Shown here one piece after another: positions 28,330 to 32,181 of a stretch of DNA of 64,000 nt; the first letter of the stretch is position 1; each line of letters opens with the position of its first letter. The position numbers and the translations under genes are program-made. The notes below the pieces were generated by a model that saw nothing but the letters and a program-made list of their open reading frames with translations, was not told where the DNA came from and searched no databases. This DNA comes from Escherichia coli (lineage in GTDB: Bacteria > Pseudomonadota > Gammaproteobacteria > Enterobacterales > Enterobacteriaceae): assembly GCF_044324875.1 (NCBI RefSeq), contig NZ_CP172185.1; one strand, 5' to 3'.

Positions 28330-28608
28330 TTGCTCAAAAAACGCACCGAAGAGAGTCGCCAGAACGCCAGCGGCGGCACCGACACACCCACCGACACCAT
28401 TAACCTGGGCGTTGTGCTGCCGGAACTGCCGGAAATCGTGCAAGTCCGCCGCGATCTGGAAGCGCTGGGCGCGGACTTCCCCGAAGCAATGGCCCATTCC
28501 GTCTTTATGGGTGCCCGCGTTCGTCTGGGTGACGGTCGCACCGTTCACCGCGACGAGCAGACCGGGCGCATCACCGTCACCAGTCTGCAACCGGAGGCGA
28601 AACCATGA
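28330..28608 (+). CDS. small ORF after gpA (possible TTG start; alternatively ATG 28489)
   Basis: Open frame from gpA stop to 28608, stop overlaps next gene start; start codon unresolved. Confidence 0.3.
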   Translation: MLKKRTEESRQNASGGTDTPTDTINLGVVLPELPEIVQVRRDLEALGADFPEAMAHSVFMGARVRLGDGRTVHRDEQTGRITVTSLQPEAKP

Positions 28609-29015
28609 ACCGTTATCATTGTGTACTGCCGCGCCACTACTTCGGTCAGATTATGCGCTCGCGTATTCCGGCGGTCACGCTGCGAAACCTGAGCACGGTA
28701 CCGCAGCCGGGCGATGAGCTGGAAATCGCCGTAGCAGGCCCTGACCGTTCAGCCAGCTGCGTGACCGCCGACGTGCTGAACGCCGTGCCCGTAGGTGGTG
28801 ACTGGCTGGTTGCCATCCGCTTCCGCCAAGACCCGTTCGCACCTGAACCGCTCACCCCCGCAGGCCGCATCATGCAGAACTGGCGGGATGAAGGCGCGAA
28901 GGCGAACTGCGAAAAACTGATTAACAGGATTGCCACGACAAACCGACATGCCGCGCTGGCGCGCCGGATATACCCCGCAAAATCAACACAACCAACAGGA
29001 GTAAAAGGCCCATGA
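28605..29015 (+). CDS. hypothetical protein (accessory island gene 1)
   Basis: 136-aa ORF, translationally coupled (ATGA overlaps). Confidence 0.55.
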   Translation: MNRYHCVLPRHYFGQIMRSRIPAVTLRNLSTVPQPGDELEIAVAGPDRSASCVTADVLNAVPVGGDWLVAIRFRQDPFAPEPLTPAGRIMQNWRDEGAKANCEKLINRIATTNRHAALARRIYPAKSTQPTGVKGP

Positions 29016-29278
29016 AAAGAATCGCCGGAACTGACTACCAGGAGCTGCTTAAAGCGGTGGAAAACTACCGTTCAGCGCTGGTGTGGTGTGAGATTAAGCC
29101 CTGTGACCCGGGAGCAGTTAAGGATTGCAACCGGGCGCGTGAGGACATTCAGCGCGTAATTGGCTACCGCTATGTAGCAGCCATTATTGACCTTGTGAAT
29201 GAACTGGAGGAAGCAAAAGAGCGCATCGCAGAACTGGAAACCCAGAATAACCCCAACCAGCAGGAGCAGAAGCCATGA
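29012..29278 (+). CDS. hypothetical protein (accessory island gene 2)
   Basis: 88-aa ORF, overlapping start/stop. Confidence 0.5.
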   Translation: MKRIAGTDYQELLKAVENYRSALVWCEIKPCDPGAVKDCNRAREDIQRVIGYRYVAAIIDLVNELEEAKERIAELETQNNPNQQEQKP

Positions 29279-29856
29279 AAAAAAGAGACCTTAAAAAACA
29301 CCTCCGTAGTCAGATTGAATATTTTGAAGATAAGGCTGCAAAAACAGGGCTTTCCGGTAAAGAGAACATGAACTTCAGGGCACACCTCCTGACGTGGAGA
29401 ATACTTAATATCACGAGAGATGGACTTGAGCCGCTAGCCTACCTGATGGAAGATGGCGAGACCCTCATACAGGATCCCAATGTGGAAATGGAGAAGAAAG
29501 AGATGGACCTGCCGATAATCGGGCTGTTTGAGATCCCTGAACTAATAGGACGTTATGAACACGAAAACCGCCAGCTTGCCGCCTTTTTATCCGTGACAAT
29601 CGAACGACTGGAAGCCGTGAAACACGATATTCCGTTCGGTTTTGATGAGCGCACCGAGGGTGATTTGCTCAGCTTTCAGATTGCCCTGAACGTGCTCACC
29701 GCAGAGCCTTCTGCGTGGCTACGCCCGGAACGGCACCACAACACGTTCGCATTTACCGTAATTCCCTACGATGCCGCACAGGAAGAGGATAACTTCGAGA
29801 CCAGGCTTGTTCCCCTGTATCAGATTGCGGATTTCTATACGTTGATTCGCTGGTAA
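29275..29856 (+). CDS. hypothetical protein (accessory island gene 3)
   Basis: 193-aa ORF, overlapping start; followed by terminator. Confidence 0.55.
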   Translation: MKKRDLKKHLRSQIEYFEDKAAKTGLSGKENMNFRAHLLTWRILNITRDGLEPLAYLMEDGETLIQDPNVEMEKKEMDLPIIGLFEIPELIGRYEHENRQLAAFLSVTIERLEAVKHDIPFGFDERTEGDLLSFQIALNVLTAEPSAWLRPERHHNTFAFTVIPYDAAQEEDNFETRLVPLYQIADFYTLIRW

Positions 29857-29870
29857 TCCCCCACAGTAAA

Positions 29871-29895
29871 ACAGCCCGACCGGGCTGTTTTTTTA
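29871..29895 (+). terminator. intrinsic terminator (acagcccgaccgggctgt + T7)
   Basis: Seen in sequence after the 29275-29856 ORF. Confidence 0.6.
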
Positions 29896-29951
29896 TCTGA
29901 TATTTTTGATAACGTTGACCGGCTCATTAGCAAAAAAGCAAAGAGGAAAAC

Positions 29952-30338
29952 ATGAAAGCCCGTATCGGGATCATCCCGGAAAAAGCCCTGCGCCAGCACC
30001 TGATTGATATTGCCAGAGGGAAGCGAAAACCACAGCCCGACGAGCCAAAGGTATGGTTTTCATCCATCAATGCGGCAGGCCAGACGCTGAGCAATGAAAA
30101 TATCGCCCTTCTGCGTCTTATGAATGAGGAGAAGCCGCAGACCATGACCGCACTTGCGGAGTTATCCGGCAGAAAACTGAGCAACCTGTCTGTAACCCTG
30201 AAAATGCTGAGCAGCTACGGTTTTGTCAGTCTGGAAAAGAAAGGGAATACTGTACACCCGAAAGCACTTTTTACCGATTTTGAAATCATCGTTGATCCGT
30301 CCGTGGGTTCAGTACATCGCGCCACCGCCCGGCCCTGA
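29952..30338 (+). CDS. hypothetical protein, possible winged-helix DNA-binding
   Basis: 128-aa ORF with RBS GAGGAAAA; segment ...MTALAELSGRKLSNLSVTLKML... looks HTH-like. Confidence 0.45.
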   Translation: MKARIGIIPEKALRQHLIDIARGKRKPQPDEPKVWFSSINAAGQTLSNENIALLRLMNEEKPQTMTALAELSGRKLSNLSVTLKMLSSYGFVSLEKKGNTVHPKALFTDFEIIVDPSVGSVHRATARP

Positions 30339-30348
30339 AGTGCGCAAT

Positions 30349-30370
30349 AAACAGCCCCGTTCGGGGCTGT
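30349..30370. terminator. hairpin cagccccgttcggggctg between convergent genes
   Basis: Seen in sequence between 29952-30338 (+) and 30374-30748 (-). Confidence 0.45.
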
Positions 30371-30373
30371 TAT

Positions 30374-30748
30374 TTATTCCAGAATCAGCTGTTCAGGTGT
30401 GCAGCCGTACAGTCTGGCAAGGCGCTCAATATTTGCCCTGCGCGGGCGTTCCGTTCTTTCGAATTCGGACACGGTAGCCTGCCTGATACCCAGCGCATCC
30501 GCCACCTGCTTTTGCGTCATTCCGCGATAGATTCGCCACGCCGCCTGCATTGTGCAGCCACGCTCCGAGAGAATGTTAACCACCTCGTTGGGATACAGCG
30601 TATCAGGCGATGCACACGGTTCGTTCTGGACGTCCTCGTAGAGTTCGTCAAGGTCGCTGTCTCCTGCCAGTTTTTCAAACAACGCCACTGGCAGAATGAC
30701 GGACACCCTGTTACCCGCACCGTCAGTAATAAACTGAATCTGACTCAT
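30374..30748 (-). CDS. XRE-family HTH protein, putative antitoxin/regulator
   Basis: 124-aa ORF; C-terminal ...MTQKQVADALGIRQATVSEFERTERPRRANIERLARLYGCTPEQL typical XRE HTH; strong RBS CAGGAGGGG. Confidence 0.6.
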   Translation of the reverse strand: MSQIQFITDGAGNRVSVILPVALFEKLAGDSDLDELYEDVQNEPCASPDTLYPNEVVNILSERGCTMQAAWRIYRGMTQKQVADALGIRQATVSEFERTERPRRANIERLARLYGCTPEQLILE

Positions 30749-30794
30749 TTACCCCTCCTGCTAAACATCGGTTTATTTTTTAATTTGCTGCCGG

Positions 30795-30821
30795 TGATAA
30801 AAAACGGCGGGTCGCCCCGCC
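30795..30821 (-). terminator. hairpin ggcggg-gcga-cccgcc + T6 immediately after the RelE-like stop
   Basis: Seen in sequence (reverse complement of 30795-30821). Confidence 0.45.
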
Positions 30822-31094
30822 TTAGTATGTTGTCGAGGTTCTCCGCTGAATACGGAGGATCCTGATAACCACTATCTGCCCTCCCTCAATCGTGAACCTG
30901 ACACGGTAATGATTTACCCTGAGTCTGTACTCCCCGCCCGAGTCAGTGAGCTTTTTAATATCCAGATTCTGGAACTTCGGATAGCCATAAAGCGCGTTAA
31001 CTTTCTCGCGTAAGGATTTCTGATCCCTCGCTGGCAAAACCCGTAAATCTTTGATTGCCCGAGGGGTCCACATGATTTCAGTCGTCATAAACAC
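30822..31094 (-). CDS. RelE/ParE-superfamily toxin-like protein
   Basis: 90-aa ORF; ...KKLTDSGGEYRLRVNHYRVRFTIEGGQIVVIRI... matches the RelE/ParE pattern (KxL..G...YRLRVGDYRV.Y). Confidence 0.6.
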   Translation of the reverse strand: MFMTTEIMWTPRAIKDLRVLPARDQKSLREKVNALYGYPKFQNLDIKKLTDSGGEYRLRVNHYRVRFTIEGGQIVVIRILRIQRRTSTTY

Positions 31095-31677
31095 ACCGGA
31101 AGCAAATTATTAAAGAGCCGTGCCCGCTGGCACACCTTAAATATAGGTTTTAACCCCTATATTGTCAAACAAAATCCCTATATCATGAAGTAAAAAAGCA
31201 CCTCCCGCGACCTCCCTTTCCGGTGCACGAAAGTGCACAAATTTGCACAATTTTTTTGAACGACTTTTTGCCCTTCCGGCCCGTGTGGCGTCTGGATCCG
31301 TCGGGGATCCGTGCGTGCACGAAAAAAGGCCTTTTTCTGCGCGCAGGTGACGGGGGAACAGCCCGCGTTTCAGGGGGTAAATAGCATTCCCTGAACGATG
31401 TTGCAGTGACACAACAGAATGGCTGTATTTCTCACGCTGAGCGTGAAAAAGACGTAAGGGCTTTTGATTTGATGGGGTGAAAGATAAGGCCGTCAAAATC
31501 GCACTGAGGCAGCGAGAATATGTCGTCAGAGTTGCGGGGTTGCGTAAGCATCCGCCCGGCGATGATGGCTACAGGGCTGGAGATGTTGTGAAATTATCTG
31601 AAGGAATAACCAGCTTGCAGGAGAACCCGGGCAAAGTCAGAATAGCGGCAGGCATCAACTCAAAAGAGGATAATGTC

Positions 31678-32181
31678 ATGAGCCACTTTAATGATTTATG
31701 CCAGATCAATCGTGAAGCTGAAGAAAAACGCGCTGAGGCAGCTCAAATTTTGCGGGATGAAGCGGCAAGGCTGATTGATTTCTATGAAGAATGGCTGGGG
31801 CTTCCATCCATGTACTGGGAAGACGATGATGGCGACCTGCACCGCTACGTGGAGACAGGCTTGCCATGTAAGACAGCGGCGGATTTTAGTCCTCTTTCAG
31901 TCCACAATATCGCATCTGCACCAGACAATATTTTCCGCATGGCCGTGCGAACCTGGGTTAAGTCATCTGACAGCAGCTACCCGGTAAGCGTGGTTATTGC
32001 ACTTGAATTATATTCAGTAGATGCGGAACGGGTGTCTCTGAGAGTCCGGGTGGAAGACGATATTTCTGTTCGCGTATTTATCAATAAACCCAGCGAAGAA
32101 GCCTGGGGCGATGTTGTTATGCACATGAAAAAGCACATCGCTAATCACCTGAAAAAGCGAGCGCCATCAGCACTTCGTTAA
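31678..32181 (+). CDS. hypothetical protein adjacent to portal gene
   Basis: 168-aa ORF from ATG 31678 with RBS AAGAGGA (in-frame GTG 31477 would give 234 aa); followed by hairpin. Confidence 0.5.
   Translation: MSHFNDLCQINREAEEKRAEAAQILRDEAARLIDFYEEWLGLPSMYWEDDDGDLHRYVETGLPCKTAADFSPLSVHNIASAPDNIFRMAVRTWVKSSDSSYPVSVVIALELYSVDAERVSLRVRVEDDISVRVFINKPSEEAWGDVVMHMKKHIANHLKKRAPSALR

Follow-up and report, generated by a model that had tools for sequence, protein, structure and literature searches.

A RelE/XRE toxin-antitoxin module of an Escherichia coli P2-like prophage with a conserved, stop-codon-locked hairpin and a predicted internal terminator

Type II toxin-antitoxin (TA) operons are usually described as co-transcribed, with the antitoxin in excess. 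One exception with an internal terminator has been published and was presented as unique: the HicA^T B system of IncI2 plasmids has an intergenic GC hairpin followed by UUU, and its toxin mRNA is about 10-fold above its antitoxin mRNA (Lin et al. 2025, Nucleic Acids Res, PMC11878559). Deletion of that hairpin equalises the toxin and antitoxin mRNAs and abolishes the plasmid-competition advantage, and a sister subfamily has overlapping open reading frames (ORFs) without the terminator (PMC11878559). In the published HigBA and MqsRA systems, it is an extra internal promoter, not an internal terminator, that raises the antitoxin (PMC11878559). We found no other description of internal terminators in TA operons in the literature searched. 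Here we analyse a RelE-family toxin gene and the XRE-type helix-turn-helix (HTH) gene that follows it, both on the minus strand and separated by 73 nucleotides (nt), in a stretch of 64,000 nt of Escherichia coli contig NZ_CP172185.1 (assembly GCF_044324875.1). This whole stretch is called the window, and all coordinates are window positions. We put the probability at roughly 60% that the pair is an internal-terminator type II module of the RelE/XRE kind, in which read-through sets the toxin:antitoxin ratio.

The locus resembles HicA^T B in that the toxin gene comes first, a GC-rich hairpin lies in a short intergenic region and a second terminator stands at the operon end. In both cases there is a sister subfamily whose ORFs overlap and which lacks the hairpin, and the short "TTT" tail is found in many relatives of the present locus. 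The proteins are different, however, being HicA and HicB there but an unrelated RelE fold and an XRE-HTH protein here. The tail is UUU there and a full U6 in the locus of the window (the focal locus). Both ribosome-binding sites (RBSs) are strong there, whereas the toxin RBS is weak here, and the carrier is a conjugative plasmid there but a P2-like prophage here. Finally, the mRNA ratio of HicA^T B was measured, and that of the present locus is a prediction.

A first-pass annotation of this DNA had described a toxin gene and then an XRE-HTH gene with a terminator between them. All of these elements are present, and the strand (minus), which had been left unstated, can be added. The GC hairpin with T6 that it had placed right after the toxin stop was found at 30821–30799 and was called by a terminator scan. 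It consists of GGCGGG (30821–30816), the loop GCGA, CCCGCC (30811–30806), one G and six T (30804–30799), and its first base adjoins the toxin TAA. Compared with dinucleotide shuffles, its folding energy of −14 kcal/mol corresponds to z=−3.1. A canonical intrinsic terminator has a GC-rich stem of at least 5 bp, a short loop and a U-rich tract of about 7–8 nt right after the stem. With six GC pairs, a 4-nt GNRA loop and the tail GTTTTTTA, the focal hairpin is a terminator by these sequence criteria, and it would be expected to end transcription. The pattern GGCGGG-N4-CCCGCC has a single exact copy in the window, which rules out a repeated element. In four E. coli relatives the toxin gene, the hairpin and the T6 are invariant, and the antitoxin genes of three of the four carry 7–9 substitutions.

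Related pairs were collected from annotated phages and plasmids, from one genome per species and from IMG/VR, with both genes located by profiles. A total of 119 toxin→HTH pairs was recovered, and these fall into two groups. Clade I comprises 78 loci with 53 distinct spacers, on phages and plasmids of Enterobacterales, Pasteurellaceae and Acinetobacter; its antitoxins have 118–136 amino acids (aa), nearly all 118–125, and there is a spacer of 34–189 nt in every locus. Clade II, found in Pseudomonas, Burkholderia and others, has an antitoxin of about 108 aa. Its genes overlap in every pair, by 17 nt in nearly all and by 20 nt in a few, and leave no spacer.

A hairpin was counted if it lay beside the toxin stop and had a folding energy of −8 kcal/mol or stronger. 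Such a hairpin was found in 48 of the 53 distinct clade I spacers, compared with a mean of 2.1±1.3 (maximum 5) in shuffled spacers and 1–2 of 53 in coding-region windows of both genes. Its start position relative to the toxin stop ranges from −3 to +9 nt across the 48 (median 5), regardless of spacer length, whereas the operon-end terminators of the same operons start 0–55 nt past the antitoxin stop (p=2.6e-6 versus internal). The stems vary by sub-lineage, with GGCGGG(G), AGTGGGGA, TGAGGGGG(A), GCTGGCGG, TGGGGGGG and GTGAGG among them, and two-sided changes were seen at five of the six stem pair positions. MAFFT alignments of the hairpins were off by one column for some sequences, and pair types were counted on a loop-anchored gapless set; this set is fitted to the structure, so that the variety of pair types is informative and not the 100% pairing. 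The loops are mostly GNRA (GAAA in 28/48). Because of the excess over shuffled spacers, the varied stems and the fixed distance to the stop, we conclude that the hairpin is a conserved, position-locked feature of clade I and not a chance terminator.

These features, namely a toxin gene in first place, a hairpin in nearly all distinct spacers and an overlapping sister clade without it, are those of an internal-terminator TA family. The terminator had earlier been called atypical for a type II pair. This is correct with respect to the textbook operon, but it does not hold within clade I (48/53), and HicA^T B is a precedent. It could be argued that the hairpin is an ordinary end-of-gene terminator left over from cassette assembly, and that the family pattern comes from shared ancestry only. 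Part of the hairpin signal is inheritance, since the commonest stem, GGCGGG(G)/(C)CCCGCC, is common to many relatives. However, the hairpin persists down to 41% toxin identity while the remaining spacer is unalignable and varies five-fold in length, its stem changes are compensatory, and its distance to the stop varies by no more than 12 nt. The overlap in sister clade II moreover shows an alternative stable state. A mere leftover is therefore highly improbable.

How the HTH gene is transcribed was addressed by promoter scans. In the window, these found no promoter with at least 9/12 consensus positions in the interval from the toxin start to the start of the HTH gene. A looser scan of the same interval gave two 8/12 sites only, neither of which has the invariant T that ends the −10 element; the best promoter-like site in the spacer is TTATCA-17-AATAAA (8/12). 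Since there is no promoter of at least 9/12, the HTH gene is most likely read by terminator read-through and not transcribed separately, as far as prediction goes. The gene does have a strong RBS of its own, as noted earlier, namely CAGGAGGGG at 30760–30752 with AGGAGG 5 nt ahead of the ATG, and the predicted Shine-Dalgarno (SD) pairing is −10.8 kcal/mol for the antitoxin against −3.0 kcal/mol for the toxin. The earlier suggestion that the pair might not be simply co-transcribed is thus borne out as to the terminator and the separate SD, but not as to separate transcription.

The alternative is two independent transcription units, in which a promoter of its own serves the HTH gene and the product is a stand-alone regulator that might act, for instance, on nearby prophage genes. 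Several features would fit this: the 73-nt gap with its canonical terminator, the strong SD of the HTH gene, the weak 8/12 site directly past the terminator and the good promoter that three Serratia-type relatives have past the hairpin. Apart from these three of 53 relatives, five others have a 9/12 site, which lies within the toxin gene or 1 nt ahead of the antitoxin ATG. What speaks against two units, besides the negative promoter scan, is the relation between the two genes. The HTH gene lies directly 3′ of the toxin gene in all 119 detected pairs, across unrelated phage, plasmid and chromosomal contexts, and in clade II the two genes overlap. Pairwise divergences of toxin and HTH protein correlate (r=0.74 overall, 0.70 within clade I; the pairs are not phylogenetically independent). 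In addition, the HTH protein has about 55 conserved N-terminal residues without a DNA-binding domain, and these were modelled confidently beside the toxin sequence. We consider the two-unit alternative very unlikely.

The Serratia-type relatives are a plasmid and phage group (L006, L155 and L158) with a sigma-70 promoter about 35 nt past the hairpin (TTAACA/TTCACA, 16-nt spacer, TATGAT) that adjoins an AT-rich palindrome, ACTTAATAAGT. A separate antitoxin promoter is probable for this sub-lineage. Loci with spacers of 170–186 nt (L094–L100 and L115) have, as read by eye, a micro-ORF of 16–19 codons with a strong SD between the hairpin and the antitoxin gene; examples are MPKNISSGLRSRIRIS and MVKIISIGIGSRRRIS. 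This micro-ORF may encode a leader peptide or represent an additional, third small gene.

The modelling used AlphaFold2 on a toxin-linker-partner fusion, with a paired alignment of 39 loci. The fusion model had a mean pLDDT (predicted local distance difference test) of 86 and a pTM (predicted template modelling score) of 0.78, with 82–87 pLDDT for the N-terminal half of the antitoxin, which it placed confidently beside the toxin sequence. The C-terminal XRE HTH of the 124-aa protein, previously proposed, was recovered by profile (Table 1), and the full-length protein matches phrog_7241 (E=1.7e-29); residues 5–28 have a faint RelB-like match (E=0.028). The N-terminal half (about residues 1–55) is the putative toxin-neutralising part. 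Because of the constant adjacency, the correlated divergence and the confident fusion model, we regard the HTH protein, on sequence and model, as the cognate antitoxin and not as the independent regulator that had been proposed. The two proteins would then form a type II TA module with the toxin gene first, in which the HTH protein presumably neutralises a toxic partner.

The toxin is a member of the RelE/ParE superfamily. The RelE/ParE signature that had been ascribed to the 90-aa protein was recovered in a profile search, with Pfam ParE_toxin (PF05016) at E=4.7e-9 over residues 7–81 and positions 1–84 of the 89-position model, and the protein also matches phrog_1213, "RelE-like toxin" (E=1.2e-14). 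The NCBIfam model TIGR02385 RelE_StbE gives 22.6 bits, under its curated cutoff of 27.9; despite this, the RefSeq name is "RelE family toxin". A ten-member family profile searched against the PDB matched M. jannaschii RelE3 (3bpq, 2e-8), P. horikoshii aRelE (8e-7) and E. coli RelE (4v7k, 8e-6). In the alignment with E. coli RelE, R57 corresponds to K54, R59 to R56, R64 to R61 and R84 to R81, while RelE K52 is not conserved (E55). The C-terminal Y90 lies six residues past R84, the same spacing as from R81 to Y87 in RelE. R64 and Y90 are invariant in the 10-sequence family alignment, and R84 is present in at least 90%. In RelE, the residues K52/K54, R61, R81 and Y87 have known catalytic roles. 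The toxin part of the model (pLDDT >90) resembles RelE folds: 3bpq_B (template modelling score, TM, 0.73; root-mean-square deviation 2.0), 3g5o_B (TM 0.78) and 9g12_B (TM 0.77). By residues and fold, the toxin is predicted to be a RelE-type ribosome-dependent mRNA endonuclease and not a gyrase poison of the ParE type, and it would be toxic as such.

Three starts are available for the toxin: GTG 31094 (90 aa), ATG 31088 (88 aa) and ATG 31073 (83 aa). RefSeq is inconsistent, with ATG 31088 annotated in two E. coli genomes and ATG 31073 in two others. ATG 31088 is more likely, because the family alignment and the NCBI annotation in two E. coli genomes agree on it.

Compared with known TA families, the toxins that match best in sequence and fold are RelE toxins (E. 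coli RelE, M. jannaschii RelE3 3bpq and M. tuberculosis RelE1/RelE2), and the basic and Tyr positions aligned with RelE K54, R56, R61, R81 and Y87 are conserved here. RelBE operons are different in that the antitoxin comes first and is the ribbon-helix-helix protein RelB, whereas here the toxin comes first and its partner is XRE-HTH. HigBA-type systems (P. vulgaris Rts1 HigBA; V. cholerae HigB2/HigA2) share with our locus the toxin-first order, a RelE-superfamily toxin and an XRE-HTH antitoxin. In HigA2 the neutralising segment is N-terminal and the HTH C-terminal, which is the layout proposed here. The HigB/HigA-like order described earlier, with the toxin first and the XRE-HTH partner second, was therefore recovered. 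However, PDB profile searches with the toxin and HTH families found RelE toxins and generic XRE HTHs and no HigB or HigA chains at E≤0.1; ParE and YoeB chains were likewise absent at this threshold from the search with the toxin family. P. vulgaris HigB (4mct_D) ranks 19th by fold (TM 0.57). Membership of the HigBA family sensu stricto was thus rejected, and it is the gene order alone that is HigBA-like. The two proteins are unremarkable representatives of the RelE/ParE and XRE families in this order, and NCBI had already annotated one as a type II toxin and the other as an HTH protein.

Table 1. Features of the toxin-antitoxin locus in the window.
Feature	Position	Strand	Details
RelE-family toxin gene	30822..31094	-	stop TAA 30824-30822; likely start ATG 31088 (88 aa)
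Intrinsic terminator (predicted)	30799..30821	-	6-bp all-GC stem, GCGA (GNRA) loop, G + T6
Remaining spacer	30749..30798	-	holds AGGAGG 30759-30754; without convincing promoter
Antitoxin gene, 124 aa	30374..30748	-	HTH_3 at residues 72-121, E=8.6e-11
Sigma-70 promoter of operon (predicted), TTGACA-17-TATATT	31140..31168	-	11/12 consensus positions
Putative operator	31140..31183	.	8-nt perfect inverted repeat AATATAGG-N8-CCTATATT and third half-site
Leader hairpin TGTGCC-AGCG-GGCACG	31119..31134	-	at or near predicted mRNA 5′ end; flagged in terminator scan
Conserved pyrimidine box CTCTTTAA in toxin 5′ untranslated region	31110..31117	-	family comparison
Operon-end hairpin AACAGCCCC-GTTC-GGGGCTGTT	30350..30371	.	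flanking T-rich runs on both strands; shared with convergent 128-aa gene

The upstream region also has features that recur in the family (Table 1). The TTGACA/TATATT layout of the operon promoter was found upstream of clade I toxin genes as well. The inverted repeat AATATAGG / CCTATATT, at 31140–31147 / 31156–31163, overlaps the −10 element and the spacer of this promoter, and a third half-site lies 21 nt off, at 31177–31183. In relatives, repeats of this kind with other sequences occupy the corresponding place upstream of the toxin. The HTH protein presumably binds this putative operator. Leader hairpins also occur at the same position in relatives, with different sequence and the pairing kept; the element could stabilise the 5′ end or act in attenuation within the leader.

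The conserved clade I leader (31106–31134 in the window, minus strand) is made up of this hairpin of variable sequence and then a near-invariant box, (A)TG(C/T)TCTTTAA. The box, searched as [CT]TCTTT[ATC]A, was present in 45 of 58 distinct clade I leaders compared with 0 of 32 clade II leaders. In the minimum-energy fold of many relatives the CUCUUU box is paired with the toxin SD; in the focal locus the toxin SD is degenerate and unpaired with the box. The asymmetry of a weak toxin SD and a strong antitoxin SD makes the focal locus an outlier, as clade I toxins usually carry a stronger SD. At the other end of the operon, the terminator scan called the operon-end hairpin on the plus strand only. 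On the minus strand its stem is followed by TATTGCGC and preceded by AATAA, and we infer that it is used in both directions.

A 7-codon mini-ORF was seen at 30745–30768 on the minus strand (ATG TTT AGC AGG AGG GGT AAA TGA, MFSRRGK), in ATGA overlap with the antitoxin start and without an SD of its own. AGGAGG dictates the RR codons, so that the mini-ORF may have arisen by chance. Short repeats are dense in the divergent region (31196–31335) that separates the toxin promoter from a 197-aa gene; ACCTCCC occurs twice, 10 nt apart, and several palindromes contain GTGCAC (TTGTGCAAATTTGTGCAC and CGTGCGTGCACG, for example). A P2-like cos site would be expected in this vicinity. A P2 cos 19-mer had no match at three or fewer mismatches, and we make no claim on cos. 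No Rfam family was found at E≤1 within 30200–31500.

Taken together, the internal-terminator reading proposes the following course. The single strong promoter at 31168–31140, with its palindromic operator, would drive both genes, and the antitoxin or the toxin-antitoxin complex would presumably repress it. The GC hairpin with U6 after the toxin stop would end a large share of the transcripts, which would give abundant toxin-only mRNA and rarer read-through mRNA, and the efficiency of read-through would set the toxin:antitoxin transcript ratio. In the focal locus, the weak toxin RBS and the strong antitoxin RBS would rebalance this ratio at translation. The attenuation suggested by the first-pass annotation agrees with this, partial termination being the best reading. 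A ribosome at a stop codon covers and unwinds a stretch of mRNA which, by the size of its footprint, includes the 5′ arm of the hairpin. Since this arm lies within the footprint, termination should respond to toxin translation; a ribosome finishing the toxin ORF would melt the hairpin, and termination would likely depend on translation of that ORF. Since it stands in nearly all pairs of the clade, the hairpin looks like a built-in dial for the toxin-to-antitoxin ratio and not like an accident.

Several observations weigh against this reading. T runs of at least 3 follow 18 of 48 internal hairpins but 36 of 40 operon-end terminators, and runs of at least 4 follow 5/48 and 25/40, respectively; the mean number of T in the next 10 nt is 3.4 for internal and 6.75 for operon-end hairpins (p=6e-12). 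The T6 of the focal locus is the longest T run among the 48 and is thus an exception in the family. Efficient termination may thus not be what the hairpin is conserved for, and the T6 may have strengthened it in this lineage specifically. Across the family, T-tract length did not correlate with RBS asymmetry (rho=−0.12, p=0.44); a family-wide balancing of terminator strength by RBS asymmetry was dropped on this ground, and the asymmetry is kept as a local observation only. The weak 8/12 site after the hairpin is a possible promoter. Moreover, an efficient terminator without an antitoxin promoter looks risky for the host, yet the locus is stable, with the toxin gene and terminator invariant in the four relatives.

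These observations also bear on a different role for the hairpin, that of an RNA stability or processing element. It would then be a 3′ protective stem-loop of a toxin-only mRNA that arises by processing or weak termination, and together with the conserved 5′ leader hairpin it would let the toxin message outlive the antitoxin-coding part. The lack of a T run of at least 3 in 30 of the 48 family hairpins is consistent with this, as is the second structurally conserved hairpin at the predicted mRNA 5′ end. The hairpin of the shortest spacers (34–36 nt, Pasteurella type) runs straight into the antitoxin SD (AAAGGAG), so that transcription must pass through it. On the other side, the focal hairpin with its G and T6 has the textbook signature of a terminator, and the HicA^T B hairpin was shown to terminate with just UUU; the tail (A/C)GTTTCC of many relatives is of the same kind. 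The two roles are also compatible. We judge it unlikely that stability is the main role. We take the conserved element to be a pause/stability hairpin or a non-canonical, leaky terminator, of which this E. coli lineage carries a strengthened canonical version.

A more far-reaching possibility, which we hold to be quite unlikely, is an mRNA-lifetime switch. The toxin-only transcript, bracketed by the two conserved hairpins, would be long-lived and kept quiet by the CUCUUU box, and the antitoxin would be made from ongoing read-through only. If this were true, a shut-off of transcription or translation by a phage, or loss of the element, would stop antitoxin synthesis while the toxin mRNA persisted, leading to abortive infection or addiction. 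A RelE system would then follow a hok/sok-like logic, which would account for the presence of the module in a P2 defence hotspot.

The locus lies between gpA (replication endonuclease) and gpQ (portal) of a P2-like prophage. Rousset et al. 2022 (PMC9122126) reported that the gpA–gpQ region of P2-like prophages is a hotspot for cargo directed against phages, and the supplementary table of that work contains exactly this six-gene cargo, including WP_029400438 (toxin) and WP_029400439 (HTH). The module is thus accessory cargo of this hotspot, and its role may be phage exclusion or prophage addiction. In the literature, the RefSeq protein accessions of the pair were found in that supplementary table only and in no main text, and no record of a phage-exclusion assay on the six-gene cargo was found. 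The 961-bp locus was found in 9 of 5426 complete E. coli genomes and is chromosomal in every case. A near-identity nucleotide search of a phage collection gave no match to the locus. Klebsiella phage 3LV2017 carries a 53%-identical pair in the same hotspot. P2 old/tin and other gpA–gpQ cargo have the same position between replication gene A and portal gene Q, but old and tin encode unrelated proteins with shown phage-exclusion activity. Among PADLOC defence models, the toxin had no match and the HTH protein had generic HTH matches only.

The remaining gpA–gpQ cargo (28605–32181) has plus-strand ORFs of 136, 88, 193 and 128 aa and a further one of about 197–234 aa at 31477/31588–32181. The 128-aa ORF (29952–30338) belongs to the HVO_A0114 family, is putatively DNA-binding and is convergent with the antitoxin gene. 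Four of these five ORFs match PHROGs of unknown function, and the 193-aa ORF matches none. None of the five matched a PADLOC defence model; the 128-aa ORF had weak CasR/CARF-type matches only.

What is new here is a whole RelE/XRE clade, on phages and plasmids, with a stop-codon-locked hairpin and a conserved leader. The analysis also points to a cargo of the P2 anti-phage hotspot for which no assay is on record. The clade offers a natural set of variants (no U tract, U3 and U6) for gauging termination by such hairpins. Because this RelE/XRE family and the unrelated HicA^T B family show the same split into hairpin-spaced and overlapping genes, our results suggest that mobile elements have repeatedly and convergently evolved internal hairpins as a means of setting the toxin:antitoxin ratio.

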